NCBI GenBank assembly: GCA_030390025.1
Contig: JASTWF010000070.1
Coordinates: 1,364,001-1,428,000, forward strand
Direction of reading: 5' to 3'
DNA length: 64,000 nt
Source of the DNA: Squalus acanthias
Lineage: Eukaryota
Below are positions 5,861 through 60,843 of this stretch, piece by piece; position 1 is the first letter of the stretch; the number at the start of each line of letters is the position of its first letter. The notes below the pieces were generated by a model that made no database searches, had not been told where the DNA came from, and worked only from the letters and a program-made list of their open reading frames with translations. The translations under genes and the position numbers were made by a program.

Positions 5861-5871
5861 TGTAAAATAGC

Positions 5872-23448: not shown

Positions 23449-23471
23449 TATTTATTACCCGGTATGCAAAT
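23449..23471 (-). promoter_or_regulatory. IgL-B promoter: octamer (23464-23471) and TATA-like element (23449-23457)
   Basis: Same motifs and spacing as copy A. Confidence 0.85.
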
Positions 23472-34100: not shown

Positions 34101-35479
34101 CCCAGTCTATATGTAGAGACTGGAGAAGCTGGGGTTATCCTCCTTAGAGCAGAGAAGGTTAGAGCAGATTTGATAGAGGCGTTCAAAATCATAAGGAGTC
34201 TGGACAGAGTAGATAGAGATAAACTGTTCCCATTGGCGGAAGGGTCGGCAACCAGAGGACACAGATTTAATGTGATTGGCAGAAGAACCAAAGGCGACAG
34301 GAAGAATATTTTTTTACGCAGCGAGTGGTTAGGATTTGCAATGCACTGCCTGTAAGGCTGGTGGAGGCAGATTCAATCGTGGCTTTCAAAAGGGAATTGG
34401 ATAGGTACCTGAAGGAAAAATAATTGCAGGGCTAAGGCGAAAGGGCGGCCGAGTGGGACTACCTGAGTGCTCTTGCGGAGTGCTGGCACGGGCTCAATGG
34501 GCCGAATGGCGTCCTTCTGTGTTGTAACCATTCTACGATTCCATTCCATAACAAACTGATGGAGAGGGAGCGGATGTTACAGCGCCACCTGCTGGAGAGG
34601 GAGCATATGCTCAGCTTGGGTATCTCCAGGACCACTCGGCTGCAGACATCATTACAGCCTTGTTCCAAACATGGACAAAAGAGTTGAATTCCAGAGGTGA
34701 GGGAGAGTGGCTGCCCTTGACATCAAGGCAGCATTTGGCCAAGTGTGGCATCAAGGAACCCTAGTAAAATTGAAGTCAACGGGAATCAGGGGTAAAACTC
34801 TCCACTGGCTGGAGTCATACCTTGCACAAAGAAAGATATTTGTGGTTGTCGGAGGCCAATCATCTCAGCCCCAGGACATCGCTGCAGGAGTTCCTTAGGG
34901 CAGCATCCTACCCCAAACCATCTTCAGCTGCTTCATCAATGACCTCCCCTCCATAATAAGGTCAGAAGTGAGGATGTTCGCTGATGATTGCACAGTGTTC
35001 AGTTCCATTCGCAACTCCTCCGATAATGAAGCAGTCCATGCCCGCATGCAGCAAGACCTGGACGACATTCAAGCTTGGACTGATAAGTGGCAGGTAACAT
35101 TTGCGTAACTCAAATGCCAAGCAATGACTATAATAAACAAGAGAGAGTCTACCCACCTCCCCTTGACATTCAACGGCATTGCCATCACCGAATCCCCCAC
35201 CATCAACAACCTGGGGGACACCATTGACCTGAAACTTAACTGGACCAGCCACAGAAATACTGTGACAGCAAGAGCAAGTCAGAGGCTGGGTATTCTGTGG
35301 CGAGAGCCTCACCTCCTGACTCCCCAAAAACTTTCCATCATCTACAAGGCACAAGTAAGGAGTGTGATGGAATAATCTCCACTTGCCTGGATGAGTGCAG
35401 CTCCAACAAGACTCAAGAAGCTCGACACCATCCAGGACAAAGCAGCCCGCTGGATTGGCACCCCATCCACCACCTTAAA

Positions 35480-36385
35480 TGATGATACAAAGCTAGGTGG
35501 GGCAGTAAGCTGTGAGGAGAAAACAAAGAGTCTGCAAAGGGATATAGGTAGACTAAGTGAGTGGGCAGTAGGGTGGTAGATGGAGTATAATGTAGGGAAA
35601 TGTGAAGTTATTCACATTGGTAGGAAGAATAGAATAACAGAATATTTTTAAATGGTGAGAAACTTTCAAATGTTGGTGTTCAGAGAGATTTGGGTGTCCT
35701 CGTGCAAGAAACACAGAAAGCTAGCATGCAGGTACAGCAAGCAATAAGGAAGGCAAATGGCATGTTGGCCTTTATTGCAAGGGGGTTGGAGTATAAGAGT
35801 AAGGAAGTCTTGCTACAATTGTACAGGGCCTTGGTGAGACCACACCTGGAGTATTGTGCACAGTTTTGGTCTCCTCATCTAAGGAAGGATATACTTGTCT
35901 TGGAGGTGGTGCAACGAAGGTTCACTAGATTGATTCCTGGGATGAGAGGGCTATCCTATGATGAGAGATTGAATAGATTGGGCCTATACTCTCTGGAGTT
36001 TAGAAGAATGAGAGGTGATCTTATTGAAACATACAAGATTCTGAAGGGGATTGACAGGGTAGATACTGAGAGGTTGTTTCCCCCTGGCTGGAGAGTCTAG
36101 AACTAGGGGGCACAGTCTCAGGATAAGGGGTAGGCCATTTAAGACTGAGATGAGGAAGAATTTCTTCACTCGGAGAGTTGTGAATCTTTGGAATTCTCTG
36201 CCCCAGAGGGCTGTGCATGCTGAGATAGATAGATTTTTGGACTCTATGGGAATCAAGGGACATGGGGATCAGGCGGGAAAGTGGAGTTGAGGTCGATGAT
36301 CAGCCATGATCTTATTGAATGGCGGAGTAGGCTCGAGGGGCCGTATAGCCTAGTCCTGCTCTTATTTCTTATGTTCTTATGTTCT
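35480..36385 (+). mobile_element. CR1 3' fragment nested in LINE-B of macro-unit 1
   Basis: Splits ACCACCTTAAA|CATTCACTCC; ORF 35690..36100. Confidence 0.9.
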
Positions 36386-39255: not shown

Positions 39256-42200
39256 TAGAGTCATATACTCATAGAGTGATACAGCACAGAAAGAGGCCCT
39301 TCGGCCCATCGTGTCCACGCCGGCCATCAAGCCCTGTCTATTCTAATCCCATTTTCCAGCACTTGGTCCGTAGCCTTGTATGCTATGGCGTTTCAAGTGC
39401 TCATCTAAATGCTTCTTGAATGTTGTGAGGGTTCCTGCCTCTACCACCCATTCAGGCAGTGAGTTCCAGATTCCAACCACCCTCTGGGTGAAAATGTTTT
39501 TCCTCAAATCCGCTCTAAACCTCCTGCCCCTTACCTTGAAACTATGCCCCCTGGTTATTGACCCCTCTACTAAGGGGGAAAGTTCCTTTCTATCTACCCT
39601 AACTATGCCCCTCATAATTTTGTACACCCCAATCAGGTCCCCCCTCAGCCTTCTCGGCTCCAAGGAAAACAACCCCAGCCTGTCCAGTCTCTCCTCATAG
39701 CTGATGCACTCCAGCCCAGGTAACATCCTGGTGAATCTCCTCTGCACCCTCTCCAATGCAATCACATCCTTCCTATAGTGTGGCGACCAGAACTGCACAC
39801 AGTATTCCAGCTGTGGCCTAACTAGCGTTTTGTACAGTTCCATCATAACCTCCCAGCTCTTATATTCTATGCCTCGGCTAATGAAGGCAAGTATCCCATA
39901 TGCCTTTTTAACCACCTTATCTACCTGTCCTGCTGCCTTCAGGGATCTATGTACATGCACACCAAGGTCCCTCTGATCCTCTGTCCTACCATTCATTGTA
40001 TATTCCCTTGCCTTGTTAGTCCTCCCAAAATGCATCACCTCACACTTTTCAGGGTTAAATTCCATTTGCCACTGTTCTGCCCATCTAACCAACCCGTCTA
40101 TATCGTCCTGTAGCCTGAGGCTTCCCTCCTCGCTATTTACCACTCCACCAATTTTCGTTTCATCTGCGAACTTACTGATCATACCTTCTACATTCATATC
40201 TAAATCATTAATATACAATACAAGCAGCAAAGGACCCAGCACCGATCCCTTCCTGCCACTAAGCCAATTTTTGATCCAATGTGCCAAATTGCCCTGGAAC
40301 CCATGGGCTCTTACCTTCTTGACCAGTCTCCCATGCGGGACTTTGTCAAAAGCCTTACTGAAGTCCATATAGACTGCAGCAACTGCACTACCCTCATCCA
40401 CACACCTAGTCACCCCCTCGAAAAATCCAATCAATTTGGTTAGACATGATCTCCCCCTAACAAAGCCATGCTGACTATCCTTGATTAATCCTTGCCTCTC
40501 CAAGTGGAGACTAATTCTGTCCCTCAGAATTTTTTCCAATAATTTCCCTACCACTGATGTTAGGCTCACTGGCCTATAATTCCCTGGTTTATCCCTACTA
40601 CCCTTCTTGAATAATGGTACTACGTTAGCTATTCTCCAGTCCTCTGGCACCTCCCCTGTGGCCAGAGAGGTTCTGAAAATTTGTGTCAGAGCCCCTGCAA
40701 TCTCCTCCCTTGCCTCACACAGCAGCCTGGGATACACCTCGTCTGGGCCTGGGGATGTATCCACTTTTAAGCCCACTAAAACCGCTAGTACCTCCTCCCT
40801 CTCAATGCTAATTTGTTCAAGTATATCACAATCCCCCTGCCTGATTTCTATGCCTACATCGTCCTTCTCCATTGTGAACACAGATGCAAAATATTCATTT
40901 AAAACCTCACCTACATCTTTCGGCTCTACACACAGATTGCCACTTGGGTCCCTAATAGGACCTACTCTTTTCCTGGTTATCCTCTTGTCCTTAATATACT
41001 TATAAAACACCTTGGGATTTTCCTTTATTTTGCACGCCAGTGTTTTTTCATGCCCCCTCTTCGCTCTCCTAATTTCTTTTTTAAATACCCCCCTGCACTT
41101 TCTATACTCCTCTACGGCTTCCACTGTTTTTAGTCCTTTGTATCTGCCAAAAGCCTCCCTTTTTTTGCTAATCCATTCTTGTATATCCCTTGACATCCAG
41201 GGTTCCCTGGACTTGTTGGTCCCACCTTTGACCTTTACAGGAACATGTTGGCGCTGTACTCTCTCTATTTCCTTTCTGAATGACTTCCACTGCTCTGATG
41301 TGGATTTTCCTACAAGTAGCTGATCCCAGTCTACTTTGGCCAGATCCTGCCTTATCATATTAAAATCGGCCTTCCCCCAATTTAGAACCTTTATTTCTGG
41401 TCCATCTTTATCCTTTTCCATGACTACCTTAAATCTGACCGAATAACTTCACTGTCACTGTCACCAAAATGCTCTCCTATTGCCACTTCTATCATTTGCC
41501 CGGCTACATTCCCTAGAATTAGGTCCAGTACCGCCCCCTCTCTTGTAGGACTTTCTACATGCTAGCTCAAAAAGCTCTCCTGAATGCACTTTAAGAATTC
41601 TGCACCCTCTAAGCCTTCCACACTCTGACTATCCCAGTTAATATTGGGGGAAGTTGAAATCCCCTACTATTATTACCCTATTATTTCTACACTTCTCTGA
41701 GATTTGCCTACATATCTGTTCCTCTATCTCCCCCTGACTGTTTGGGGGCCTATAGTACACTCCCAGCAAAGTGCTTGCCCCCTTTTTGTTTTTAAGTTCT
41801 ACCCATATGCCCTCATTAGAGGCACCTGCTAAGATATCATCCCTCCTTACAGCAGTAATTGACTCCTTGATTAATATTGCCAGGCCCCCTCCTCTTTTAC
41901 ACCCCCCTGTGTCTCGCCTGAAGATTCTATACCCTGGAATATTGAGCTGCCCGTCCTACCCCTCCCTCCACCATGTCTCTGTGATAGCAACAATATCAGA
42001 CTCCCATGTGTTCATCAACACCTTCAATTCATCTGCCTTACTCGCAAGACTCCTTGCATTAAAATAAATGCCATCCAGCCTTGCCATACTCCCTTGTGCC
42101 GTTACATATTTCCTCTGCCTGGCTTGTTTTTTCCTCTATATTTGGCTGTGCATTACCCCCTACTATAGCTCCCATCCCCCTGCCAAGTTAGTTTAACCCC

Positions 42201-42490
42201 CCCCCCCCCAACAGCACTAGCAAACCTCCCCGCAAGGATGTTGGTCCCGTTCCGGTTCAGGTGCAACCCGTCCGACTTGTACAGGTCCCACCTTCCCCAG
42301 AAGCAGACCCAGTGATCCAGGAAACTAAAGCCCTCCCTCCTGCACCAACTCTTTAGCCACGCATTCATCTGCTCTATCCTCCTATTCCTATACTCACTAG
42401 CACGTGGCACCGGGAGTAATCCAGAGATTACAACCTTTGAGGTCCTGCTTTTTAATCTGCTACCTAGCTCCCTAAATTCTCCCTAGCTCC
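39256..42490 (-). mobile_element. Long CR1 LINE: end of ORF1 (SGNH-esterase-like), endonuclease and RT with internal deletions
   Basis: 42153..42410 LDHW..FWGRWDLYKSDGLHLN (DxxH esterase motif); 692-aa ORF 39343..41421 lacking the segment between WLSGR and GSVLGP. Confidence 0.92.
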
Positions 42491-42824
42491 TCCTGAGCTG
42501 TAACCATTCCTTAATTCCATTCTATAACACACTGAGAAGTATCCCACAGGAATCCTGCTGGAGAGGGAGCTGATCTTACAGCGCCACCTGCTGGAGAGGG
42601 CGCGAATGTTACAGCGCCACCTGCTGGACAGGGAGCACATGCTCAGTTCGTGTTCCACCAGGACCCCACTGGGCTCCCGACATGGACAAATGAGCTGAAT
42701 TCCAGAGGTGAGGTGAGAGTGACTGCCCTTGACATCAAGGCAGCATTCGGCCAAGTGTGGCATCAAGGAGCCCTAGTAAAACTGAAGTCAATGGGAATCA
42801 GGGGGGAAACTCTCCACTGGCTGG

Positions 42825-44269
42825 TGGAAGATTTCAAAAAGTGTAATAAAACCGCGTGTAGATCGAAATTGCGAACGATTTGTAAGATGATAACGGACGG
42901 ATTCAAAATGTAGGAAATCGGCCTGTGTTCTTTGTTTGTCACATGGACAAGAAGGAAGAACTTGATTGACAAGGAAGTCCCGCCCCCATACATCTCACAG
43001 GAACAGGAACGTGACATGCGGAAGGAACTCCAATCAGGGAAGGTTTGGAGTGGAACTGACCTATCTAAGGGAGGCAGAGAGTTCTTTATGATCAACGAGG
43101 CCTTATAACCCAGTGGCGGGAGCTTTCAGAGAACAAAGAAGAAGCCCAGAAGACAGAACAGGAGAAACAATGGACTGAGAAAGCTGGCCAGTCTCTGTTT
43201 CGAATTACAATTTTCCCTGGACCGATCACCCAGAGACAATGTACGAGACTCGGATATATAGACATAGACATAGACATAGAAGATAGGAGCAGGAGTAGGC
43301 CATTCGGCCCCTCGAGCCTGCTCCGGCATTCGATGAGATCATGGCTGATCATCCAAACTCAGTACCCTGTCCCTGCCTTCTCCCCATATCCCTTGATACC
43401 TTTAGCTTTAAGAAATATATCTAACTCATTCTTGAATATATTTAATGACTTCGCCTCAACTGCCTTCTGTGGTAGAGAATTCCACAGGTTCACCACTCTC
43501 TGGGTGAAGAAATTCTTCCTCATTTCTGTCCTAAATGGCTTACCCCTTATCCTTAGATTATGACCCCTGGTTCTGGACTCTCCGACCATCGGGAACATTC
43601 TTCCTGCATCCAGTTTGTCCAGACCTGTCAGAATTTTATATGTTTCGATGAGAGCCCCTCTCATTCTGCTATACTCCAGCGAGTATAAGCCCAATCGACC
43701 CAATCTCTCCTCATATGTCATTCCTGCCATCCCAGGTATCAGCCTTGTGAATCTTCGCTGAACTCCTTCCATGACAAGAACATCCTTCCTCAGATAAGGC
43801 GACCAAAACTGCACACAGTACTCAAGGTGTGGTCTCACCAAGGCCCTGTACAACTGCAGCAGGACATCCCTGTTCCTATACTCAAACCCTTTCGCTATGA
43901 AGGCCAACATACCATTTGCCTTCTTCACCGCCTGCTGCACCTGCATGCTTACCTTCAGCGACTGGTGCACAAGGACACCCAGGTCTCGTTGCACTTCCCC
44001 TTCTCCCAATCTATAAGCTTAGATGTTGTTAAGGGGGTACTTTTATGTACGTTTGAATCATTAAAGGGGCACTTTTATATACTTTGAATTGATAAGTTGC
44101 AGGCATATTTATTGCCGGGAGTTCTTTGAATTTGTTGCCAAAGGTGCTTTTATGTACACTTGAATTTTGAACTACAGTCTGATTAAAAGACCAATTTTAT
44201 TGATCACATCCTTGTCTGTCATTCTTAAGCTAATTCGTAATTCTCGAGGTAGTAAGAGAAAGTCTTACA
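42825..44269 (+). mobile_element. Solo LTR (about 690 bp net) with CTGG TSD, interrupted by a CR1 fragment
   Basis: TGGAAGATTT...AAAGTCTTACA termini; CTGG at 42821-42824 and 44270-44273; host LINE-B resumes; ATTAAA near 44182. Confidence 0.8.
43257..44013 (-). mobile_element. Young CR1 3' fragment, nearly identical to about 30360-31100
   Basis: ORF 43359..44009 almost matches the C-terminal part of 30447..32036. Confidence 0.92.
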
Positions 44270-47213
44270 CTGGAGACATACCTAGCACAAAGAAGAAAGT
44301 TGTGGTTGTTGGAGGCCAATCGTCTCAGCAACAGGACATCGCTGCAGGTGTTCCTCAGGGCAGTGTCCTAGCCCGACCATCTTCAGCTGCTTCATCAATG
44401 ACCTCCCCTCCATCATAAGGTCAGAAATGGGGATGTTCGCTGATGACTGCACAGTGTTCAGCGCCATTCACAACTCCTCAGATAATGAAGCAGTCCATGC
44501 TCGCATGCAACAAGAACTGCATGACATTAAGGCTTGGGCTGATAAGTGGCAAGTAACATTTGCGCCACATAAGTGCCAGGCAATGACTATCTCCAACAAG
44601 CGAGAGTCTAACCACTGCCCTTTGACATTCAACAGCATTACCATCGCCGAATCCCCCACCATCAACATCCTGGGGGTCACCATTCATAAGAAACTTAACT
44701 GGACCAGCTACATAAAAACTGTGGCTACAAGAGCAGGTCAGAGGCTGGGTATTCTGTGGCGACTGTCTCACTTCCTGACTCGCCAAAGCCTTTCCACCAT
44801 CTACAAGGCACAAGTCAGGAGTGTGATGGAAAACTCTCCACTTGCCTGGATGAGTGCAGCTCCAACAACACTCAAGGTGCTCGACACCATCCAAGATAAA
44901 GCAACCCGCTTGATTGGCACCCCATCCACCACATTAAATATTCGCTCCCTCCACCACCGGTGTACCGTGGCTGCAGTGTGTACCATCTACAAGATGCACT
45001 GCAACAACTCACCAAGGCTTCTTCGACAGCACCTCCCAAACCCGCGACCTCTACCACCTAGAAGGACAAGGGCAGCAGGTGCATGGGAACACCGCCACCT
45101 CCAAGTCACACACCATCCTGACTTGGAAATATGTTGCCACCCTTCATCGTTGCTGGGTCAAAATCCTGGAACTCCCTCCCTAAAGGCACTATGGGAGTAA
45201 CTTCACATCACGGACTGCAGTGGTTCAAGGGGGCGGCTCACCACCAGCTTCTCAAGGACAATGAGGGACAGGCAATAAATACTGGTGTTGCCGGCGACGC
45301 CCACATCCCAGGAACGAATAAAAAAAATGTTACAGCGCCACCTGCTGTAGAGGGAGCGGATGTTACAGCGCCACCTGCTCGAGAGGGAGCGGATGCTCAG
45401 TTCGGGTTTTGCCAGGATCACTCGGCTCCGGACCTCATTACAGCCTTGGTCCAAACATGGACAAAAGAGCTGAATTCCAGAGAATGGTTCCAGCGATGAG
45501 GGACTTCAGTTACGTGGATAGACTGGAGAAGCTGGGGATTATCTCTTTACAGCAGAGCAGTTTGAGAGGAGATTTGATAGAGGTGTTCAAAATCATGAGG
45601 GGTCCGGACAGAGTAGATAGAGAGAAACTGCTTCCATTGGCAGAAGGGTCAAGAACCAGAGGACTTGATTTAAGGTGATTGGCAGAAGAGCCAAAGGTGA
45701 CATGAGGAAAAACTTTTTTACGCAGCGATTGGTTAGGATCTGGAATGCGCTGCCTGAAAGGGTGTTGGAGGCAGACTCAATCGTGGCTTTCAAAAGGCAA
45801 TTGGGTAAGTACCTGAAGGGAAAACATTTGCTGGACTACAGGGAAAGGGCGGGGGAGTGGGACTAGCTCAAGTGCTCTTGCAGAGAGCCGGCTCGGGCTC
45901 CACGGTCCGAATGAGCTCCTTCTGTGCTGTAATCATCCTATGATTCCATTCTATAGCACACTGAGAGCGGTCCCACAGGAATCCTGCTGGAGCGGGAGCA
46001 GATGTTACAGCGCCGCCTGCTGGAGCGGGAGCGGATGTTACAGCGCCGCCTGCTGGAGCGGGAGCGGATGTTACAGCGCCACCTGCTGGAGAGGGCACGG
46101 ATGTTTCAGCGCCACCTGCTGGAGAGGGAGAGTTTGCTCAGTTCGGGTTCCGCCAAGACCACTCGGCTCATTACAGCCTTGTTCCAAACATGGACAAAAG
46201 AGCTGAATTCCAGAGGTGAGGTGAGAGTGGCTGCCCTTGACGTCAAGGCAGCATTTGACCAAGTGTGGCATCAAAAAGCCCTAGTAAAATTGCAGTCAAT
46301 GGTAATCAGGGGGGAAACTCTCCACTGTCCTGAGACATACCGAGCACAAAGGAAGATGGTTGTGGTTGTTGGTGGTCAATCATCACAGCCCCAGGACACA
46401 GCTGCAGGAGTTCCTCAGGGCAGTGTCATAGGCCCAACCATCTTCATCTGCTTCATCAATGACCTCCCCTCCATCATAAGGTCAGAAGTGGGAATGTTCG
46501 CTGATGATTGCACAGTGTTCAGTTCCATATTTCAACACCTCCAACAATGAAGCAGCCCATGCTCGCATGCAACAAGACCTGGATGACATTCAGGCTTGGG
46601 CTGATAAGTGGCAAGTAACATTCGCGCCACACAAGTGCCAGGCATTGATTATCTCAAACAAGCGAGAATCTAACCACTGCCACTTGACATTCAACAGCAT
46701 TACCATCGCCGAATCCCCCACCATCAACATCCTGGATTTCACCATTGACCAGAAACTTAACTGGACCAGCCACATAAATACTGTGGCTACAAGAGCAGGT
46801 CAGAAGCTGGGTATTCTGCATCGAGTGTCTCACCTCCTGACTCCCCAAAGCCTTTCTACCATCTACAGGGCACAAGTCAGGAGTGTGATGGAACACCCTC
46901 CACTTGCCTGGATGAGTGCAGCTCCAACAACACTCAAGAAGCTCGACACCACCCAGGACAAAGCAGCCCGCTTGATCGGCACCCCATCCACCACCTTAAA
47001 CATTCACTCCCTCCACCACCGGCGCACCGTGGCTGCAGTGTGTACCATCTACAAGACGCATTGCAGCAACTCGCCAAGGCTTCTTCGACAGCAGCTCCCA
47101 AACACGCGACCTCTACCATCTAGAAGGACGAGGGCAGCAGGCGCATGGGAACACCACCACCTCCAAGTTCCCCTCCAAGTCACACACCATCCTGAATTGG
47201 AAATATATCGGGC

Positions 47214-48446
47214 TGTAGGCTTCGCAAAATCCCCCAGAAACTCGAACAGAGCCCTAAAGGGAGTGATTTTTGGACTTTTCATACAAACTTGGGATGATGG
47301 GGCCTAAGTGAAGTGATTTGATGTAAAAACCTAAAGATCAGAGAAGAAAAAACCTGAGGAAACTGACTTTTTGAATCTTACTGTTGGGAGAGACACCTTT
47401 CACAGACACAAGCTGCGAGGGGCGTGGCCAGGCAGTGAACAAATCAAGCTGTCTGGGAATTGTTTACACTACAAATCCTACCAAGGTGCAAGAGACAAAG
47501 TAAAAACTCACAAACACATTCAAATATGAATCCCCAGGGGCAAACAAGATGCTGGAAATCTAAAAACGATTCCTGACAATAAAACTTCCAGCACACAGTT
47601 TCACAGCCATTATCCCATCAAAAAAACTAATCAACCAGGTATCCACAGAACAGATTTAAAAGCCTGCCGAAAGACCTAGGACATTAGGGGGAGATTTGGC
47701 GTGTAGATAAGGCTGTGTTTAAATCGGGAAACGATCAAGACATGTTTAACACTGAGCAAAAGCCATCGGAACTGGCAAGCCCGCCAAAACTAGACAATTG
47801 GACTAAGCAAGGTTCATTTGCAACCAAAAGGAATCCGTTTTAGTAAGGGTTTTTTGGGCGCGAAAAAGAAACAGTATAATTTGAAAGCCTGTGCCATAAT
47901 TTCTCTCTCTTTCGGACTGGCTGACCACGCGGACACAGCTCTCTCCCTGCTCCAGCAAAACCTACCACAAGCTACGAGGAAGAAGGCCAGAAAACAGACC
48001 AGCATGCAAGAAGAAACCAGAGCGACTGCCTCAGTGACCATCGGACACCTTGCAGCAACAAGGGCCTTACGGAGTCTTTTAAACAAAAGACTCTAAAATC
48101 CTGTCAAGGATTCGTTGGTGAGCATTATCCCTGATCTCCTGAAACCAAAAACCTAGCCAGATAGTGGGATCTTTGGGAGGGATAAGGTTTTGTTTGATAT
48201 ATTGTCATTTCCCTCGCTTGTACCGTGTGCTCCCCAATCTGTGTTTAAGTAATAAGTGTGTTTCAAGTTTGTTACCTTTTTCTTTTAATAAAGTAAAATT
48301 CTTTCATCAGAACCTGTCATTTACTGCAATTTTGTTCACAACCCCTAAATAAGTCCAAAGTCTAGGAACCGGAGGGGTGTGGGAGCGATTCGAACCGCTC
48401 ACTGTGTCAGAAAGCGAAGGCTGACCCCATTAAGATACCCCTTACA
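47214..48446 (+). mobile_element. Solo LTR, 1233 bp, GGGC TSD (ERV1-like or Gypsy)
   Basis: TGTAGG...CCTTACA termini; GGGC at 47210-47213 and 48447-48450; AATAAA 48287-48292; host LINE-B resumes. Confidence 0.85.
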
Positions 48447-51400
48447 GGGCCAATCCTTCATCGTCGCTGGGTCAAAATCCTGGAACTCCCTCCCTAACAG
48501 CACTGTGGGAGCACCTTCACCACACGGACTGCAGCGGTTCAAGAAGGCAGCTCACCGCCACCTTCTCGAGGGCAATTAGGGATGTGCAATAAATGCTGGC
48601 CTTGCCGGCGATGCCCACATCCCAGGGACGAATAAATAAAATGTTACAGCGCCACCTGCTGTAGAGGGGGCCGTTGCTCAGTTCGGCTTTTGCCAGGATC
48701 ACTCGCCTCCAGACCTCATTAGGGCTTTGGTCCAAACATGGACAAAAGAACTGAATTTCAGAGAATGGTTCCCGGGATGAGGGACTTCAGTTACGTGGCT
48801 AGACTGGAGAAGTTCGGGTTGTTCTCCTTAGAGCAGAGAAGATTGAGAGGAGATTTGATAGAGATGTTCAAAATCATGAAGCGTCTGGACAGAGTAGATA
48901 GAGAGAAACTGTTCCCATTGGCGGATGGGGCGAGAACCAGAGGACACAGATTTAAGGTGATACCCAGAAGAACCAAAGGTGACATGAAGAAAAACTTTTT
49001 TTTAAGTGGCAATTGGTTAGGATCTTGAATACACTGCCTGAAAGGATGTTGGAGGCAGACTCAATCGTGGCTTTCAAAAGGGAGTTGGATAAGTACCTGA
49101 AGGAAAAACATTGGCTGGGTTACGGGGAAAGGCTGGGGGAGTGGGACTAGCTGAGGTGCTCCTGCAGAGAGCCGGCACGGGCTTGACGGGCCGAATGGCC
49201 TCCTTCTGTGCTGTTACCATTCTATGATTCCATTCTGTAACACACTGAGAGGAGTCCCACAGGAATCCTGCTGGAGAGGGAGCGGATGTTACAGCGCCAC
49301 CTGCAGGAGAGAGAGTGGATGTTTCAGCGCCACCTGCTGGAGAGGGAGCGTATGCTCAGTTCGGGTTTCGCCAGGACCACTCGGCTCCAAACCTCATTAC
49401 AGCCTTGTTCCAAACATGACAAAGGAGCTGAATTCCAGAGGTGAGGTGAGAGTGACTGCCCTTGACATCAAGGCAGCATTTAGCTAAGTGTGGCATCAAG
49501 GAGCCCTAGTAAAATTGAAGTCAATGGGAATCAGGGGGGAAACTCTCCACTGGCTGGAGACATACTGAGCACAAAGGAAGAAAGTTGTGGCTGTTGGAGG
49601 CCAATCATCTCAGCCCCAGGACATCGCTGCAGGAGTTCCTCAGGGCAGTGTCCTAGGCCCAACCATCTTCATCTGCTTCATCAATGACCTCCCCTCCATC
49701 ATAAGGTCAGAAGTGGGGATGTTCGCTGGTGATTGCACAGTGTTCAGTTCCATATTGCAACACCTCCAACAATGAAGCAGTCCATGCTCGCATGCAGCAA
49801 GACCTGGACGACATTCAGGCTTGGGCTGATAAGTGGCAAGTAACATCCGCGCCACACAAGTGCCAGGCAATGATTATCTCAAACAAGCGAGAGTCGAACC
49901 ACTGCCCCTTGACATTCAACAGCTTTCCGATCACCAAACCCCCATCATCAATATCCTGGGAGTCACCATTGAGCAGAAACTTAACTGGACCAGCCACATA
50001 AATACTGTGGCTACAAGAGCAGGTCAGAGGCTGGGTGTTCTGCATCGAGTGTCTCACCTCCTGACTCCCCGAAGCATTTCTGCCATCTACAAGGCACAAG
50101 TCAGGATTGTGATGGAATACTCTCCACTTGCCTGGATAAGTGCAGCTCCAACAACACTCAGAAGCTCAATACCATCCAGGACAAAGCAGCCCGCTTAATT
50201 GGCACCCCATCCACCACCTTAAACATTCACTCCCTCCACCACCGGCGCACCGTGGCTGCAGTGTGTACCATCTTCAAGATGCACTGCAGCGACTCGCCAA
50301 GGCTTCTTCGGCAGCACCTCCCAAACCCGTGACCTCTTCCACCTAGAAGGACAAGGGCATCAGGCGCATGGGAACACCACCACCTCCAAGATCCCCTCCG
50401 AGTCACTCACGCACCATCCTGACTTGGGAACATATCGACCGTTCCTTCATCGTCGCTGGGTCAAAATCCTGGAACTCCCTCCCTAACAGCACTGTGGGAG
50501 GACCTTCACCACACGGACTGCAGCGGTTCAAGAAGGCGGCTCACCACCACCTTCTCAAGGGCAATTAACAATGCGCAATAAATTCTGACCTTGCCAGCGA
50601 CACCCACATCCCAGGAACAAATAAAAAATTGTTACAGCGCCACCTGCTGTAGAGGGAGTCATAGAGTCATAATGTTATACAGCACAGAAAGAGGGCCTTC
50701 TGCCCACCGTGTCCGCGCCGGCCATCAAGCCCTGTCTATTCTAATCCCATTTTCCAGCACTTGGTCCGTAGCTTTGTATGCTATGGCATTTCAAGTGCTC
50801 AACTAAATGCTTCTTGAATGTTGTGAGAGTTCCTGCCTCTACCACCCTTTCAGGCAGTGAGTTCCAGATTCCAACCACCCTCTGGGTGAAAAAGATTTTC
50901 CTCAAATCCCCTCTAAACCTCCTGCTCCTTACCTTGAAACTATGCCCCCTGGTTATTGACCGCTCTACCAAGGGGAAAAGTTCCTTTCTATCTACCCTAT
51001 CTATGCCCCTCATAATTTTGTACACCTCAATCAGGTCCCCCTCAGCCTTCTCTGCTCTAAGGAAAACAACCCCAGCCTGTCCAGTCTCTCTTCATAGCTG
51101 AAGCGCTGCAGCCCAGGTAACATCCTGGTGAATCTCCTCTGCACCCTCTCCAACGCAATCACATCCTTCCTATAGTGTGGCGACCAGAACTGCACACAGT
51201 ATTCCAGCTATGGCCTAACTAGCGTTTTGTACAGCTCCATCATAACCTCCCTGCTCTTATATTCTATGCCTCGGCTAATGAAGGCAAATATCCCATATGC
51301 CTTTTTAACCACGTTATCTACCTGTCCTGCTGCTTTCAGGGATCTATGTACATGCGCACCAAGGTCCCTCTGATCCTCTGTCCTTCCTAGGGTCCTACCA

Positions 51401-52132
51401 TTCATTGTGTATTCCCTTGCCTTGTTAGTCCTCCCAAAATGCATCACCTCACACTTTTTAGGGTTAAATTCCATTTGCCACTGTTCTGCCCATCTAAGCA
51501 ACCCGTCTATATCGTCCTGTAGCCTAAGGCTTCCCTCCTCGTTATTTACCACTCCACCAATTTTCGTGTCATCTGCGAACTTACTGATCATACCTCCTAC
51601 ATTCATATTTAAATCATCAATGTACACTACAAACAGCAAAGGACCCAGCACCGATCCCTGTGGTACAACACTAGACACAGTCTTCCAGTCACAAAAACAA
51701 CTTTCGACCATCACCCTCTGCCTCCTGCCACTAAGCCAATTTTGGATCCAATGTGCCAAATTGCCCTGGATCCCATGGGCTCTTACCCTCTTGACCAGTC
51801 TCCCCTGCGGGACTTTGTCAAAAGCCTTACTGAAGTCCATGTAGACTACATCAACTGCACTACCCTCATCCACATACCTAGTCACCCCCTCGAAAAATTC
51901 AATCAAATTGGTTAGACATGATCTCCCCCTGACAAAGCCATGCTGACTATCCTTGATTAATCCTTGCCTCTCCAAGTGGAGACTAATTCTGTCCCTCAGA
52001 ATTTTTTCCAATAATTTCCCTACCACTGATGTTAGGCTCACTGGTCTGTAATTCCCTGGTTTATCCCTACTACCCTTCTTGAATAATGGTACTACGTTAG
52101 CTGTTCACCAGTCCTCTGGCACCTCCCCTTTG

Positions 52133-52242
52133 TATCTAATTATCTTCACCTGAGGAAGGAGCAAATCGATAGCTCCGAAAGCTTGTGATTTCAAATAAAA
52201 CTGTTGGACTATAACCTGGTGTTGTGCGACCTCTCAATTTTG
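52133..52242 (+). mobile_element. 110-bp Penelope-type terminal-repeat fragment with 12-bp TSD
   Basis: ACCTCCCCTTTG at 52121-52132 and 52243-52254; empty site seen in the sister CR1 near 40650. Confidence 0.75.
52146..52188 (+). ncRNA. Minimal type I hammerhead ribozyme motif
   Basis: TCAC-CTGAGGA-A-GGAGC(loop)GCTCC-GAAA-GCTT-GTGA: CUGANGA/GAAA core, stems I and II, palindromic minimal stem III. Confidence 0.7.
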
Positions 52243-52954
52243 ACCTCCCCTTTGGCCAGAGAGGTTCTGAAAATTTGTGTCAGAGCCCCTGCAATCTCCT
52301 CCCTTGCCTCACACAGCAGCCTGGGATACATCTCGTCTGGGCCTGGGGATTTATCCACTTTTAAGCCCGCTAAAACCGCTTGTACCTCCTCCCTCTCAAT
52401 ACTAATTTGTTCAAGTATATCACAATCCCCCTGCCTGATTTCTATGCCTACATCGTCCTTCTCCATAGTGAACACAGATGCAAAATATTCATTTAAAACC
52501 TCACCTACATCTTCCGGCTCTACACACAGATTGCCACTTTGGTCCCTAATGGGCCCTACTCTTTCCCTGGTTATCCTCTTGCCCTTAATATACTTATAAA
52601 ACACCTTGGGATTTTCCTTTATTTTGCCCGCCAGTGTTTTTTCATGCCCCTCTTCGCTCTCCTAATTTATTTTTTAAGTATCCCTCTGCACTTTCTATAC
52701 TCCTCCACGGCTTCCATAGTTTTTAGTCCTTTGTATCTGCCAAAAGCCTCCCTTTTTTTCCTAATCCATTCTTGTATATCCCTTGACATCCAGGGTTCCC
52801 TGGGCTTGTTGGTCCCACCCTTGACCTTTATGGGAACATGTTGGTGTTGTACTCTCTCTATTTCCTTTCTGAAAGACTCCCACTGCTCTGATCTGGATTT
52901 TCCTACAAGTAGCTGATCCCAGTTCACTTTGGCCAGATCCTGCCTTATCATATT

Positions 52955-53698
52955 GGGCCAAAAATTCATCCCGCGACGCGAGAGTACGCACTGCGTACTC
53001 TCGCGTATTCTCTCTCCAATTGCCGGTTTTCTGCATGCCCTGCACATGCGCTGAAAACCGGCACTTGGTCTTTTGAAAAGGGGGCGGTTCCTCGGTGCAT
53101 CGCATGCGCGCTACAGGCTGCGCGCACGCTGTGCACTTCATGCTTTGGATGCGCAGGTAAGTACGGAAGATTTTAGAAATGGAAAAAGGAGGAGTAAGAC
53201 CCACTTTTAACAAGGTAAGTAGTGAATTAAGTATTTTTTTGATTTTTTTTTAACAGGTATATCTTTTTTAGAGACTTTAAAGACAGGTAAGTTTATTTTT
53301 ATAACTTTTTAAAAGATTTTAAATTTTTTCAAAAATTTAATTTTTTATTTAAAATGGTTAATTTATTTAACTATACTTATTTTATTAATGTGATGGGTTT
53401 TTTTTTAAATTTAATTGAGGTTTAGCTGTTATTTTGGGGGGGTGTAAGATTCATAGATTTCACAGCACGGACATGAAACTTATGAATGGAAGATGGTGTG
53501 CTGCCATTGGCTCTAACTGAGTCACGTGATCCCACAGCTCGCACGAATTCACTACGCCGGTGGGATACGCAAGCACTGCCCAGCTGATGTCTGGAACATC
53601 AAGTTCGTGCGAGCTGGATCTGAAAAAGCACAAGCGGAGTGAGAGATCGCGGGGATGCCTTACCCCCGCGGGAACAGAGCGAGATCAATTTCTGGGCC
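52955..53698. mobile_element. MITE, second copy of the 9737-10478 family, ATT TSD
   Basis: TIR 16/20 match; ATT at 52952-52954 and 53699-53701; empty site TTATCAT-ATT-AAAATCGGC at about 41352-41370. Confidence 0.92.
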
Positions 53699-56391
53699 AT
53701 TATAATCGGCCTTCCCCCAATTTAGAACCTTTATTTCTGGTCCATCTTTATCCTTTTCCATGACTACCTTAAATCTCACCGAATTGTGGTCACGGTCACC
53801 AAAATGTTCTCCTACTGACACTTCTATCACTTGCCCGGCTACATTCCCTAGAATTAGGTCCAGTACCGCCCCCTCTCTTGTAGGACTTTCTACATGCTGG
53901 CTCAAAAAGCTCTCCTGGATGCACTTTAAGAATTCCGCACCCTCTAAGCCTTTCACACTCTGACTATCCCAGTTAATATTGGGGAAGTTGAAATCCCCTA
54001 CTATTATTACCCTATTATTTCTACACTTCTCTGAGATTTGCCTACATATCTATTCCTCTATCTCCCCCTGACTGTTTCGGGGCCTATAGTACACTCCCAG
54101 CAAAGTGCTTGCCCCCTTTTTGTTTTTAAGTTCTACCCATATGCCCTCATTAGAGGAACCTGCTAAGATATCATCCCTCCTTACAGCAGTAATTGACTCC
54201 TTGATTAATATTGCGACACCCCCTCCTCTTTTACTCCCCCCTCTGTCTCGCCTGAAGATTCTATACCTAGCTGCCAGTCCTGCCCCTCCCTCAACCATGT
54301 CTCTGTGATAGCAACAATATCATACTCCCATGTGTTCATCAACACCTTCAATTCATCTGCCTTACTCGCAAGACTCCTTGCATTAAAATAAATGCCATCC
54401 AGCCTTGCCATACTCCCTTGTGCCATTACATATTAGCTCTGCCTTCCAGGCTGACTTGTTTTTTCCTCTATATTTGGCTGTGCATCACCCCCTACTATAG
54501 CTCTACTCCGTATCCCATCCCCCTGCCAAGTTAGTTTAACACCCCCACCCCCTACAGTACTAGCAAGTGGATGCTCAGATCGAGTTTTGCCAGGATTACT
54601 CGGTTCCAGACCTCATTACAGCCTTGGTCCAAACATCGACAAAAGAACTGAATTCCAGAGGGGTTCAAAATCATGAGGGGTCTAGAGAAGTAGATAGAGA
54701 GAAACTGTTCCCATTGGCGGAAGGGTCGAAAACCAGAGGACACAGATTTAAGGTGATTGGCAGCAATTCCAAAGGCGACATGAGGGACAACTTTTTACGC
54801 AGCGATTGCTTAGAATCTGGAATGCACTGCCTGAAAGGGTGGTGGAGGCAGATACAATCACGGCTTTCAAAAGGGAATTGGATAGGTACCAGAAGGAAAA
54901 AAAATTGAATGGCTACAGGGAAAGAGCGGGGGAGTGGGACTAGCTGAAGTGCTTTTGCAGAGAGTCAGCTTGGGCTCGACGGGCCGAATGGGCTCCTTCT
55001 GTGCTGTAACCATTCTATGATTCCATTCTATAACACACTGAGAGGAGTCCCTCAGGAATCCTGCTGGAGAGGGAGCGGATGTTAGAGCGCCACCTGCTGG
55101 AGAGGGAGAGAATGTTACAGCGCCACCTGCTGGAGAGGTAGCAGATGCTCAGTTCAGGTTCCGCCAAGACCACTCGGCTCCAGACCTCATTACAGCCTTG
55201 TTCCAAACATGGACAAAAGAACTGAATTCCAGAGGTGAGGTGAGAGTGGCTGCCCTTGACATCAAGGCAGCATTTGACCGAGTGTGGCATCAAGGAGCCC
55301 TAGTAAAACTGAAGTCAATGGGAATCAGGGGGAAAACTCTCCACTGGCTGGAGTCATACCTAGCACAAAGGAAGAAAGTTGTGGTGGTTGGAGGTCAATC
55401 ATCTCAGCCCAGGACATCGCTGCAGCTGTTTCTCAGGGCAGTGTCCTAGGCCCAAACATCTTCAGCTGATTCATTAATGAACTCCCCTCCATCATATGCT
55501 CAGAAGTGGGGATGTTTGCTGATGATTGCACAGTGTTCAGCGCCATTCACAACTCCTCAGAGAATGAAGCAGTCCATGCTCGCATGCAGCAAGACCTGGA
55601 CGACATTCAGGCTTGGGCTGAAAAGTGGCAGGTAGCATTAGCGCCACACAAGTGGCAGGTAATGACAATCTCCAACAAGCGAGTGTCAAACCACCGCTCC
55701 TTGACATTCAGTGGCATTACCATCACCGAATCCCCCCACCATCAACATCCTGGGGGTCACCATAGACCAGAGACTGGACCAGCCACATAAATACTGTGGC
55801 TACAAGAGCAGGTCAGAGGCTGGGTATTCTGCGCTGAGTGTCTCACCTCCTGACTCCCCAAAGCCTCTCCACCATCTACAAGGCACAAGTCAGGAGTGTG
55901 ATGGAATACTCCCCACTTGCCTGGATGAGTGCAGCTCCAACAATACTCAACAAGCTCAAGGAAAAACTTTATTATGCAGTGAGTGGTGAGGACCTGGAAC
56001 TCGCAGCCGACGGAAGTGGTGGAAGCGGAGACACTCAATGTTTTCAAGGGGAGACTGGATAGGCACTTGAGGGAAATAAACTTGCAGGGCTACGGGGATA
56101 GAGTGGGGGAATGGGACTGACCGGATTGCTCTACAGAGAGCCGGCACGGACCCGATGGGCCGAATGGCCTCCTTCTGTGCCGTTATGACTCTATGACTCT
56201 ATGACCAGCAAGTACAAAGCAGCCCGTTTGATTGGCACCCCATCTACCACCTTAAACTCTCTCCCTAACAGCACTATGGGAGTAACTTCAGCTCATGGAC
56301 TGCAGCGGTTCAAGACGATGGCTCTCTACCACCTTCTCAAGGGCAATTAGGGATGGGCAATAAATGTTGGCCTTGCCAGCGATGCCCAGGA

Positions 56392-57250
56392 ACATAGAAA
56401 CATAGAAAAATAGGAGCAGGAGTGGGTCATTCGGCCCTTCGAGCCTGCTCCACCATTCAATATGATCATGGTTGATCCTCTATCTCAATACCATATTCCC
56501 GCTCTCTCCCCATACCCCTTGATGCCTTTTGTGTCTAGAAATCTATCTCCTTCTTAAATATATTCAGTGACTTGGCCTCCACAGCCTTCTGTGGTAGAGA
56601 ATTCCACAGGTTCACCACCCTCTGAGTGAAGAAATTTCTCCTCATCTCAGTCCTAAATGTCCTGCCCCGTATCCTGAGACTGTGACCCCTCGTTCTAGAC
56701 CCCCGGCCCCCCCCAGCCAGGGAAGCATCCTCCCTGCATCCAGTCTGTCTAGCCCTGTCAGAATTTTATACGTTTCAATGAGATTCTCTCTCATTCTTCT
56801 AAACTCTAGTGAATACAGGCCTAGTCGACCCAATCTCTCCTCATATGACAGTCCTGCCATCCCAGGAATCAGTCTGGTGAACCTTCGCTGCACTCCCTCT
56901 ATGGCAAGTATATCCTTTCTTAAGTAAGGAGACCAAAACTGCACACAGTACTCCAGGTGTGGTCTCACCAAGGCCTTGTACAACTGTAGTAAGACATCCT
57001 TGCTCCTGTACTCAAATCCCCTTGCAATGAAGGCCAACACACCATTTTCCTTCCTAACTGCTTGCTGCACCTGCATGTTTGCTTTCAGTGACTGGTGTAC
57101 AAGGACACCCAGGTCCCTTTGTACATCAACATTTCCCAATCTATCACCATTTAAGTAATACTCTGCCTTTCTGTTTTTCCTACCGAAGTGGATAACTTCA
57201 CATTTACCCACGTTATACTGCATCTGCCATGTATTTGCCCACTTGCTCGA
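56392..57250 (-). mobile_element. CR1 3' fragment inserted in the LINE-B tail of macro-unit 6
   Basis: ORF 56642..57349 (WANTWQMQYNV...). Confidence 0.9.
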
Positions 57251-57464
57251 CAATGAAAGAAATTTTACAGCGCCACCTGCTGGAGAGGGAGCGGGTGTTA
57301 CAGCGCCACCTGCTGGAGAGGGGGCGGCTGTGCAGTTGCTTCGCTCCAAAGGGTGTCACCAGAGAACAGATTCCAGGAGGAGCCCCGATCACACGCCTTA
57401 AAGGGGCCGTTTCCTTAACACGGTATTAATTGGGATCTTCACCCTCCTGTGGATGCCCAGCCCC

Positions 57465-58030
57465 TTACACTTCTATTCTGACGCTCTCCTGGCCGGCTTC
57501 CCACGTTCCGCCCTCCGTAAACTTGAGCTCCTCCGAAGCTCTTCTGCCCCCGTGTCCTAACTCGCACCGAGTCCCGTTCACCCATCACCCCCTGTTGCTC
57601 GCTGACCTACATTGACTCCCGGTCCGGCAATGCCTCGATTTCAATATTCCCATCTTCCTGTTCAAATACCTCCGTGGCCTCCTCGCCCCCTCTCCCTATC
57701 TCTGTAAACTCCGCCAGCCCCACAACCCTCCCAGATCTCGGCGCTCCTCCAATTCTGGCCTCTTGCGCATCCCCCGATTTCCATCGCTCCACCATTGGTG
57801 GCCGTGCCTTCAGCTGCCTGGGCCCTGAGCTCTGGGATTCCCTCCCTAAACCTCTCTGCCTCTCTCTCCTCCTTTAAGACGCTCCTTAAAACCGACCTCT
57901 TTGACCAAGCTTTTGGTCGCCTGTCCCAATATCTCCTGATGTGGCTCGGTGTTGAATTTTCTCTGACAATCGCTCCTGTGAAGCACCTTGGGACATTAAA
58001 GGCGCTATATCAATGCAAGTTGTTGTTGTT
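57465..58030 (+). mobile_element. L2-type LINE 3' fragment
   Basis: Homologous to 11270-11780; (GTT)n tail. Confidence 0.8.
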
Positions 58031-58709
58031 AGAGGGGTTGGAAAATCTGTGGTGGGGAGGGGAAGGCGAGGCCTTGCCTTCGGCACAGGCTGGGATCGCA
58101 CTGCTCATTTTATTTTTATGGCTGAGCTGTGCTGCGTTCACAGGAGGCTGTTCGACCAGGGTGTGCAGCATGATTTCAGCGTTATGTCAATTAGGGCACT
58201 GACTCCCCACCCTTGCATCTCGCACCCTCTGCCCCAGGAATCCAACATCACCACTGATAGGCCCACTCAAAGCCAGGCAACATATCCACCCTCACTTCCT
58301 GGCCTTTGACAGGATTATCTGAGGTGTGGTTGGTTGGTATGAATGCGAGCAGATGCTGTGTGGCGCCATAACTGGAGCCGAGGGCAGCCTTGAGCCATTC
58401 AGCCCATCGCCCCGTGCTCTCTCTCTGAAAGTCCTCTCCCCTTAGTCCCGTTCCCCTGCCCTTTTAAACTTTAATTTCCCAAATATTTACCCATTTCCCT
58501 TTTAAAAGCTACTCTGGACTCTGCTACCACCGCTGTTTCTGGCCGGATAGTCCCTGTCCAACAGGCCTCTGTGTAAAAGATATTCTCCCGGCCTCGCGCA
58601 CGCTTCCTCTGACGATGATCTGAAATTGAAGCCTTCTGGATACTGACTCACCGACCGGTGCTAACGGTCGATGTGTCCGTGACGAGAGCGCGGGCGGAAG
58701 GAGGCGGTG

Positions 58710-59630
58710 ACGATACAAAGCTAGGTGGGACAGTAAGCTGTGAGGAGCACACATAGAGTCTGCAAAGAGATATAGACAGGTTCAGTGAGTGGGCAGTAAG
58801 GTGGCAGATGGAGTATAATGTGGGGAAATGTGAAATTATCCACTTTGGTCGGAAGAATAAAAAAAGCCGAATATTTTTTATAAGTTGAGAGATTAGTAAA
58901 TGTTAGTGTTCAGAGGGATTGGGGTGTCCTTGTACACGAATCACAGAAAGTTAACATGCAGGTACAGCAAGCAATTAGGAAGGCAAATGGCATGTTGGCC
59001 TTTATTGCAAGGGGGTTGGAGTATAAGAGTAAGGAAGTCTTGCTACAATTGTACAGGGCCTTGGTGAGACCACACCTGGAGTACTGCGCACAGTTTTGGA
59101 CTCCTTATCTAAGGAAGGATATACTTGCCTTGGAGGCGGTGCAACGAAGGTTCACTAGATTGATTCCTGGGATGAGAGGGCTGTCCTATGAGGAGAGATT
59201 GAGTAGATTGGGCCTATACTCTCTGGCGTTTAGAAGAATGAGAGGCGATCTCATTGAAATGTATAAGATTCTGAGGGGGATTGACAGGGTAGATGCTGAG
59301 AGGCTGTTTCCCCCTGGCTGGAGAGTCTAGAACCAGGGGTCACAGTCTCAGGATAAGGGGTCGGCCATTTAGGACTGAGATGAGGAGGAATTTCTTCACT
59401 CAGAGGGTGGTGAATCTTTGGAATTCTCTGCCCCAGAGGGCTGTGGAGGCTCAGTCGTTGAGTATATTCGAGGCTTAAATCGATAGATTTTTGGATATTA
59501 AGGGAATCAAGGGATATGGGGATCGGGCGGGGAAGGCGGAGTTCAGGTCGATGATCAGCCATGATATTGAATGGAGGAGCAGGCTCGAGGGGCCGAATGG
59601 CCGACTCCTGCTCCTAATTCTTAAGTTCTT
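58710..59630 (+). mobile_element. CR1 3' fragment
   Basis: ORFs 58956..59330 and 59293..59478. Confidence 0.9.
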
Positions 59631-59839
59631 GTGTGAGACGGTCGGGAGGCGGGGGGTGAGTTCTGTAAACAGGGGAATGGGTTTGCGGATTTAATGGGGT
59701 ATTTTCTCTGTTCCCTCAAAGCTCTTGTCGGCCATCAGAAGCAGTCAGTCCTGTTAAATCCACGACGGTGATGATTCACATGGCCGAACAGCCGGATCCC
59801 AGCCTGTGTCTGAGAGCGGCACTGAATGCAGCTTGGCAG

Positions 59840-60110
59840 CTCGCCATCTCCCCACGGGGGACTTGGGCGGTGTTTCGAAAGCCTTTATTTAGCCGCCGAT
59901 ACCCAAATCGCTGCCGTTTTTGTCTTGTTTGTGAAGCTCTGCAGGTGGTGCGGTCGCTCGCCCCGGGGGGGGAGAGCAGGGCTGGGGAGGAACTGAAAGC
60001 TGCCTGCTCACTGGGCGATAAGCGATGGCGCGTGGCACCAGCTGCCCTGCACTGAATCAGCACAGACCAAGACTGCGGTTTCACACACGAGCAGGACAGG
60101 AAGCTGAGAA
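59840..60110. promoter_or_regulatory. Candidate B-cell enhancer (EICE, E-boxes, RUNX, EBF-like, ETS, MEF2-like)
   Basis: GAGGAACTGAAAGC 59987-60000; CAGGTG 59942; CAGCTG 60039; TGCGGT 59949; TGCGGTTT 60074; CCCNNGGG near 59851 and 59961; CAGGAAG 60097. Confidence 0.5.
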
Positions 60111-60279
60111 GCAACGTTAACCGTTCACATTCTGGGACACGACACACAGCAACAGAAAAACATCTCATTGTCTGGACTGGGACACTCAGCAAAACTGAAC
60201 TCCAGCTCTTCACCCCCTTGGCTGTTTCTCTGCCTTTTTATGCTTTCTATTAATTACATCTTCCCCGGTCCAGGTTTAT

Positions 60280-60843
60280 CTCCCTCTTCAGCCCACCTCC
60301 CATCGTCCGCCCTCCATAAACCTCAGTTCATCCAAGACTCCACTGCCCCCGTGTCCTAACTCGCGCCGAGTCCCGCTTACCCATCGTCCACTGTTGCTCG
60401 CTGACCTACATTGGCTCCCGGTCCGGCAACGCCTCGATTTTAAAATTCTCCATCCTTGTTTTCAAATCCCTCCGTGACCTCCTCGCCCCCCCCCCTCCCT
60501 ATCTCTGTAACCACCTCCAGCCCCCACAACCCTCCGAGATCTCTGTGCTCCTCCAATTCTGGCCTCTTGCTCATCCCCCGATTTCCATCGCTCCACCATT
60601 GGCGGCCGCGCCTTCAGCTGCCTGGGCCCCGAGCTCTGGAATTCCCTCCCTAAACCTCTCCGCCTCTCTCTCTCCTCCTTTAAGATGCTCCTTTAAACCT
60701 CTTTGAACAAGCTTTTGGTCACCTGTCCTAATATCTCCTTATGTGGCTCGGTGTCAAATTTTGTCTGATAATCGCTCCTGTGAAGCGCCCTGGGACGTTT
60801 TACTACATTAAAGGCGCTGGATAAATACAAGTTGTTGTTGTTG
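60280..60843 (+). mobile_element. L2-type LINE 3' fragment
   Basis: LHWLPVRQRLDFKILHP motif; (GTT)n tail. Confidence 0.82.

Follow-up and report, generated by a model that had tools for sequence, protein, structure and literature searches.

How is expression restricted to one immunoglobulin (Ig) gene per cell when the genes are already joined in the germ line? Pre-joined genes cannot use V(D)J recombination for this purpose, and exclusion among the many clusters of sharks is a long-standing puzzle, which PMC2435157 raises for heavy chains. The window, by which we mean the whole 64,000-nucleotide stretch of Squalus acanthias DNA analysed here (C3553:1,364,001-1,428,000), contains two germline-joined light-chain genes of the isotype known as type I, sigma-cart or sigma-2 (three names for one isotype, PMC4279169), a tandem array of CTCF-like sites and, just outside the latter, an island of non-repeat DNA that had been predicted from its motifs to be a shark Ig enhancer. 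A single 300-bp element with known factor sites would make the question of exclusion testable. The features are as follows, with a strand given where one was assigned:

5227..8816, minus strand: germline-joined sigma-2 gene 1, intact, VJ-C
19373..23471, minus strand: germline-joined sigma-2 gene 2, intact, last of the array and nearest to the island; likely the main target
34583..57316, minus strand: CTCF-like sites in tandem (11 strict matches; 25 one-mismatch matches), every one facing the gene array
57290..57490, minus strand: last CTCF unit and its flank, with an old paralogue 2.7 kb from the island copy on C24
58031..58707, no strand: neighbouring segment with two extra RUNX matches, outside the element
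58708..59634, no strand: dispersed repeat at the left border of the island; the window contains many 74-88% copies of it
59635..60297, no strand: candidate B-cell enhancer, a non-repeat island of 663 bp in all, motif core 59850-60105
60298..60843, no strand: dispersed repeat bounding the island on the right, common to organism C, absent from organism D and from the C24 copy

The island is probably a B-cell enhancer that serves the neighbouring sigma-2 array from the array's edge, and we treat it as a candidate for this role. This is the part of the original prediction that stands, as the best reading of the motif rank, of the motifs found across organisms and of a copy beside another light-chain gene, whereas its assignment to a next cluster, the shielding of the genes by the CTCF block and the extension of the element by further RUNX sites could not be upheld. 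The island lies 36 kb from the promoter of gene 2, on its 5' side, and 2.3 kb past the end of the CTCF-like array, beyond 25 gene-facing sites. It had been described as unique and indeed has no further copy inside the 64-kb window; searching the genome with the island or with its core, however, gave two copies each time (2/2 candidates), the second being 98.5% identical and situated on C24, so that the island is not unique. The left-bounding repeat is presumably a CR1 element, as originally labelled, and the TGTGGT matches at 58048 and 58325, across this repeat, had been thought to extend the element. They are lost in the C185 paralogues (89-91% identical) and fall outside the C24 copy, and 58390-58660, the right half of their segment, is a common repeat with 944 candidates; we therefore leave them out of the element. 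On the other side, 62907-63504 is a 33-bp satellite that is common in the region. The repeat of the CTCF unit is 33 bp too and loosely resembles this satellite, from which it may derive.

The second copy of the island (C24:46,620,997-46,621,603) keeps every motif core. It is located on the 3' side of a C exon, at a distance of 16 kb, and the promoter of an intact joined gene is 26 kb away; thus, both copies are linked in cis to sigma-2 exons within 16-36 kb. A single CTCF-like site faces the genes on C24, 2.7 kb from the island copy, and its flank is an old paralogue of window unit 57290..57490 (120 of 227 columns identical; 68.6% over 137 bp), so the order gene - CTCF unit - island is found at both loci. 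The C24 locus would thus be an old gene-CTCF-island module in which the island and the C exon (98-99%) were recently copied or homogenised: two such young parts in an old module suggest that sequence was copied of late, or passed by gene conversion, between paralogous positions. The C24 gene itself (C24:46,643,186-46,647,850) is germline-joined, its V being 56% and its C 99% identical to those of the array, and has a 33-bp J-donor segment tandemly repeated behind the V exon. Another sigma-2 cluster, on C185, has DNA homologous to the window up to position 58960 and lacks the island. None of its five VJ genes is intact, versus 13 of the 29 examined on C3553, two of the five being copies of one another within a 99.6% inverted duplicate. 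This duplicate, of 24 kb (C185:740,007-763,913 and 916,095-940,000), frames the cluster.

Within the island, the following sites were identified:

59851..59858, no strand: EBF-like core 1, CCCNNGGG, flanking bases not optimal
59883..59892, no strand: MEF2-like CTTTATTTAG, one mismatch
59888..59915, no strand: longest block unchanged in organisms B, C and D, 28 bp; the C24 copy differs at one position
59942..59947, plus strand: E-box CAGGTG (E2A type), no change in B, C, D or the C24 copy
59949..59954, plus strand: RUNX site 1, TGCGGT (TGYGGT), sole change C>T at degenerate position 59951, in B and C
59961..59969, no strand: EBF-like core 2, CCCNNGGG, in an indel-prone C/G run
59987..60000, plus strand: ETS-IRF composite (EICE) GAGGAACTGAAAGC, GGAAnnGAAA, part of a 23-bp stretch (59984-60006) that has no change in B, C or D
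60039..60044, no strand: E-box CAGCTG, this lineage only
60074..60081, plus strand: RUNX site 2, TGCGGTTT, sole change C>T at degenerate position 60076, in B and D
60097..60103, plus strand: ETS site CAGGAAG, unchanged in B, C and D

Every motif of the original list was found at its place, the EBF cores being judged against what we take to be the EBF consensus. The two E-boxes differ in their fate: CAGGTG is kept in all three organisms, whereas CAGCTG is absent from all three, broken by G>C at 60044 in B, C and D and by G>A at 60041 in D. EBF-like core 1 shows no listed change in C or D, nor among the 25 of 32 changed places that are listed for B; core 2 has insertions at 59959-59964 in B, C and D and, by our reading of the listed changes, appears to match the EBF consensus in organisms B and C and, in D, to be without its GGG half. 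In the MEF2-like site, position 59886 is changed in B, C and D and position 59887 in D, always within A/T, leaving one mismatch in all four organisms, a quality of match that is present in 37% of background windows. Past the end of this site, the 28-bp block contains no nameable motif and possibly holds an unrecognised binding site. The EICE, also unchanged in the C24 copy, shares 13 of 14 letters with the mouse kappa 3' PU.1-IRF4 site, GAGGAACTGAAAAC, whose form as given in the original prediction agrees with Fig S5 of PMC3972084. Taken alone it is weak evidence, because its 11-mer AGGAACTGAAA has three matches in the window, two of them in a dispersed repeat (31995, 33291), and GGAAnnGAAA has 17 in 200 kb of random genome. 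No NF-kB site was matched in 57500-61000, and the octamer is likewise absent from the island; lacking an NF-kB site, the island was not filed as a lambda- or kappa-type enhancer.

We propose that PU.1 or Spi-B together with IRF4/8, as well as E2A, RUNX and EBF1, would bind the island in B cells; the importance of such motifs has been shown for Ig enhancers of birds and mammals (PMC3972084). The island may also target hypermutation, by analogy with DIVAC elements. Cohesin extruding the array would stall at the gene-facing CTCF sites and so bring the octamer promoters beside the enhancer, which sits just behind these sites; the most frequent contact would be with the nearest promoter, at 36 kb, and gene 2 would then be the gene used most. 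Rather than forming a wall, the tandem sites would be a leaky anchor by which access is graded.

All 25 one-mismatch CTCF-like matches, which are motif matches, fall on a single strand, and a genome search with the CTCF unit gave 13 matches, all within the 34583..57316 block; both the CTCF consensus and the orientation rule applied here are what we take to be the accepted ones. No strict CTCF match was found within the gene array in C3553 1-50 kb or 764-1,388 kb, and no convergent site in the sigma-2 promoters, the pieces scanned (820 of 1,364 kb) having scattered one-mismatch matches only. The literature cuts both ways, since PMC7087399 describes tandem CTCF sites as permeable and as balancing promoter choice in the Pcdh and Igh clusters, yet as enhancer-blocking. 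Against the enhancer reading stand the position of the island outside up to 25 CTCF-like sites, conservation of the core that, in the comparison with organism D, equals that of the flanks, the loss of the second E-box, the instability of EBF-like core 2, the mismatch in the MEF2-like site and the lack of NF-kB and octamer sites.

If the island is an enhancer, how far does it reach? About 48 joined V loci, counted among the best 150 of 1236 candidates scored, lie between 24 and 1,387 kb of C3553. The array (C3553:24,000-1,388,000) is arranged mostly head-out, tail-in, on the plus strand to 370 kb and on the minus strand from 386 kb. The two target genes have continuous VJ frames, with V and J fused in the germ line, and the C domain of gene 1 shares 72% identity with Leucoraja type I light chain and 82-83% with Heterodontus light chains; a PDB search confirmed an Ig C domain and nothing further. 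The gene 1 C exon (5227-5560) has three amino-acid changes at places where other copies agree, and is not among the deposited proteins. Many array genes are broken, for part of which assembly errors may account: intact genes make up eight of 12 at 1,140-1,388 kb, two of 10 at 764-1,135 kb and three of seven at 24-390 kb. A decay of genes with distance from the island was considered and is not counted as support, being post hoc and not monotonic. We also rejected the idea that C3553 is no more than a haplotig: the part duplicating C24:48.84-48.91 Mb is confined to 111-178 kb, and its dermatopontin-like gene is single-copy. The duplicate itself (C3553:111,253-178,250 versus C24:48,840,221-48,907,087, 98-99.7% identical) ends at an N gap, which suggests that C3553 belongs in that gap of C24.

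Deposited proteins offer a view of which genes are used. A sole Squalus cluster was found among 66 homologues, with 10 distinct proteins under 11 consecutive accessions, in which leader, V and C are joined. Among the genes compared, gene 2 is the best match for eight of the 10 distinct proteins (nine of the 11 accessions), with 112-118 of 118 positions in V (one exact) and 105-108 of 108 in C, and for one protein this was confirmed genome-wide; the remaining two have their best V at C3553 1,187 kb (111 and 105 of 118). The gene directly behind the CTCF block thus appears to be expressed. The proteins probably come from one study, so primer or clonal bias is possible; a primer in the leader would not by itself account for the skew, because many genes share the leader of gene 2, but a single study, few animals or clonal bias could. 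In the J-C intron, EBF-like, ETS and NF-kB-like motifs occur at 7060-7140 and 7560-7575, with homologues in most genes, and this group is a possible intronic enhancer; the region is deleted or shortened in some copies, e.g. at 1,242 kb and 1,354 kb.

These data bear on the strongest of the rival explanations, namely that the enhancer is real and effectively private to gene 2 and the C24 gene, most other clusters being silent, decaying or driven from their introns and the CTCF block being a domain boundary. It overlaps with the reading of a shared enhancer and differs from it in reach only. We regard it as rather unlikely, while taking it seriously, as it would accommodate the predominance of gene 2 among the deposited proteins, the low proportion of intact genes at 764-1,135 kb, the position of the C24 island, placed like an ordinary 3' enhancer of one gene, and the presence in introns of motif groups of their own. 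In contrast, another family member accounts for two of the 10 deposited proteins, intact genes are still present at distances above 1 Mb (at 163, 367 and 390 kb), and the scanned 820 kb of the 1,364-kb array contain no comparable motif cluster. The other extreme is a full model in which one edge enhancer, metered by a locally amplified CTCF array, is shared by some 48 joined VJ genes, which would then not be autonomous, and engages only one promoter at a time, giving each B cell a RAG-independent choice of a single light chain and a hierarchy favouring the nearest gene, with the two loci kept in step by gene conversion. As a whole we find this model doubtful, more so than the private enhancer.

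Can the candidate enhancer instead be a chance cluster of short motifs in slow-evolving, unconstrained DNA between repeats, with the C24 copy a passenger of segmental duplication? To score motif density we used 300-bp windows and eight B-cell motif classes, each weighted by its background frequency, two of which (NF-kB and octamer) are absent from the island. For all classes but the E-box, the patterns are what we take to be their consensus. The E-box pattern, CASSTG, follows PMC3972084. The resulting figures are optimistic, because the motif classes are mostly those of the original prediction and the background is repeat-rich and holds many duplicates: the island and its C24 copy rank first in 1,064,000 bases (7.75; next 5.85) and in 1,864,000 bases (7.88; next 6.93), and the score of the island was matched by none of 3000 dinucleotide shuffles, by none of 40 letter-permuted decoy motif sets over 1.06 Mb (best 7.64 vs 7.77) and by none of 640 decoy 64-kb blocks, a low-complexity filter having kept 87,735 of 106,395 windows for the decoy test. 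By rank, shuffles and decoys, the dense signature that had been claimed is denser than expected by chance. A looser rule (EICE, E-box, RUNX and EBF together) selects four regions, two of them the island copies, and scoring the cross-organism-kept motifs only gives 5.91, a value that one further region of the 1.86 Mb equals besides both copies. The second-ranked region, C24:48,973,711 (6.93; two octamers, two E-boxes and an ETS site), lies about 120 kb past the far end of the array and is unrelated to the island, of which no homologue was found at that end (C24:48.80-49.02 Mb).

Conservation gives a less uniform picture. Six of the 13 sequence runs matching all or part of the island were compared (run X6 spans 60186-60297 only). 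No RNA run was listed among the 13, which speaks neither for nor against transcription, and contigs of organisms B, C and D span most or all of the island at about 87-95% identity; changes were taken from the listed places, which are 25 of 32 for B and 34 of 35 for C, the core being complete for D. All three retain the EICE, the CAGGTG E-box, the two RUNX sites and the ETS site. Changes affect two of 59 constrained motif bases vs 37 of 237 other bases (Fisher p=0.007; p=0.02 when the indel in EBF-like core 2 is counted as a break), with the degenerate positions picked post hoc, after the data had been seen; the RUNX sites changed by CpG transitions, a common event in any case, and B and C are not independent, as they are close relatives. 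Over all bases originally named the corresponding counts, six of 73 vs 33 of 223, are not significantly different (p=0.10). Against organism D the motif core and the island flanks do not differ, having 27 of 311 (8.7%) and 28 of 331 (8.5%) bases changed. Together, these counts at most suggest constraint on the motif bases.

The explanation by chance gains from the last two of these results, from a motif list that is largely post hoc and a best decoy set that comes close, from the occurrence of the EICE 11-mer in a repeat and from the tract shared by C24 and the window (58390-60237), which includes a repeat insertion. Yet it has to contend with the rank, shuffle and decoy results, with an EICE that sits within a 23-bp invariant block, and with a C24 copy 1.4 kb from an old paralogue of the CTCF unit, a position that random placement would rarely produce. 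On balance we consider it unlikely.

The candidate enhancer might also be real and insulated from the Ig array, as first thought, acting on genes to the right or being stranded in a boundary. The original prediction had tentatively assigned it to a next cluster beyond the window, which is unsupported, since no match to V, C or an Ig promoter was found in the 250 kb to the right (C3553:1,428,001-1,678,000), and every Ig gene lies on the other side of the island. What lies at C3553:1,434,000-1,625,000 instead are dermatopontin-, PEX11-, perilipin-, Ras-, TLR-, methyltransferase- and L24-like genes, the TLR-like one with a single-exon frame of 849 aa, a set reminiscent of human 1q21-24; the Pfam scan covered the longest 140 of 566 repeat-free frames, so short exons could be missed. 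These non-Ig genes are next on the right, starting with the dermatopontin-like gene 10 kb from the island, and the island is flanked by the left-facing CTCF block on one side and by a right-facing CTCF-like site (C3553:1,434,040, ahead of the first right-hand gene) on the other. In Pcdh and beta-globin tests, moreover, CTCF sites have a blocking effect when they intervene between an enhancer and a promoter (PMC7087399). On the other side of the balance, the C24 copy adjoins Ig genes and has no dermatopontin-like gene beside it, that gene being single-copy, the motif set is of the B-cell type, and the right-facing site separates the island from the right-hand genes as well. The nearest Ig gene also dominates the deposited proteins: that the gene just behind the block best fits eight of 10 argues against shielding by the block, if the island is that gene's enhancer, and the same order recurs on C24. 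Shielding may still occur if the genes run on their own intronic elements. Altogether we judge insulation from the array to be distinctly improbable.

That the island is a coding exon, a structured RNA or a transposon remnant is very hard to believe, for although stop-to-stop frames of up to 153 aa overlap it and 14 letters around the EICE match a repeat of the window, its relatives carry indels of 1, 7 and 10 bases, no Rfam match was found at E<=1, the folding z-score is -0.18, and there are only two copies, with no extended repeat alignment at word size 7.

An enhancer at the edge of the sigma-2 array thus remains our preferred reading. No Ig enhancer of a cartilaginous fish was described in the literature searched, which is mostly open-access and so no proof of absence, nor in the excerpts of PMC2435157, PMC2193156, PMC4279169, PMC5192425, PMC12227049, PMC9936319, PMC3308330 and PMC2192082. 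If the island is active, an enhancer grammar of PU.1-IRF, E2A and RUNX sites, possibly with targeting of hypermutation, would date to the base of jawed vertebrates, and if the array shares this one enhancer, its gene units would not be regulated one by one.

How does this arrangement compare with known systems? At mouse Igh, too, one end of the locus combines B-cell enhancers, those of the 3' regulatory region, with CTCF sites that stand in tandem and face the locus, the 3' CTCF cluster. Those enhancers lie inside the CTCF cluster and serve one rearranging locus; unlike there, the island lies outside the CTCF cluster and the genes are pre-joined miniclusters. The Pcdh clusters (PMC7087399) also combine an edge enhancer with tandem co-oriented CTCF sites that face a promoter array, but each Pcdh alpha promoter has a convergent CTCF site (PMC7087399), whereas the scanned parts of the sigma-2 array have no strict match, and Pcdh choice is balanced whereas the deposited sigma-2 proteins suggest a proximal bias.

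Similar in composition are the Ig lambda enhancers, or DIVAC elements, of chicken, mouse and human, which according to PMC3972084 hold, like the island, some 200 bp that include a PU.1-IRF4 composite, an E-box and a MEF2 or MEF2-like site, the last being upstream of the EICE (Fig S4, PMC3972084); the mammalian ones and this shark further agree in an E-box 50 bp downstream of the PU.1 site (PMC3972084). The island differs from them in having no NF-kB site, in its extra RUNX and EBF-like sites and in a downstream E-box that other sharks have not kept; in addition its main copy lies 5' of the nearest genes, outside the CTCF array. With the Ig kappa 3' enhancer it shares 13 of 14 letters of the EICE, nearby E-boxes and, in the C24 copy, a position 3' of a C exon, but it adjoins sigma-2, a separate isotype (PMC4279169), and has no NF-kB site, and the EICE match probably reflects convergence on a strong site. 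Finally, the type I (sigma-2) light chains of the skate, the same isotype, number 89 clusters or more, every one of them joined in the germ line, with expression and possibly mutation (PMC2192082); here, genes of this kind are placed in one 1.36-Mb array, together with a candidate control element.
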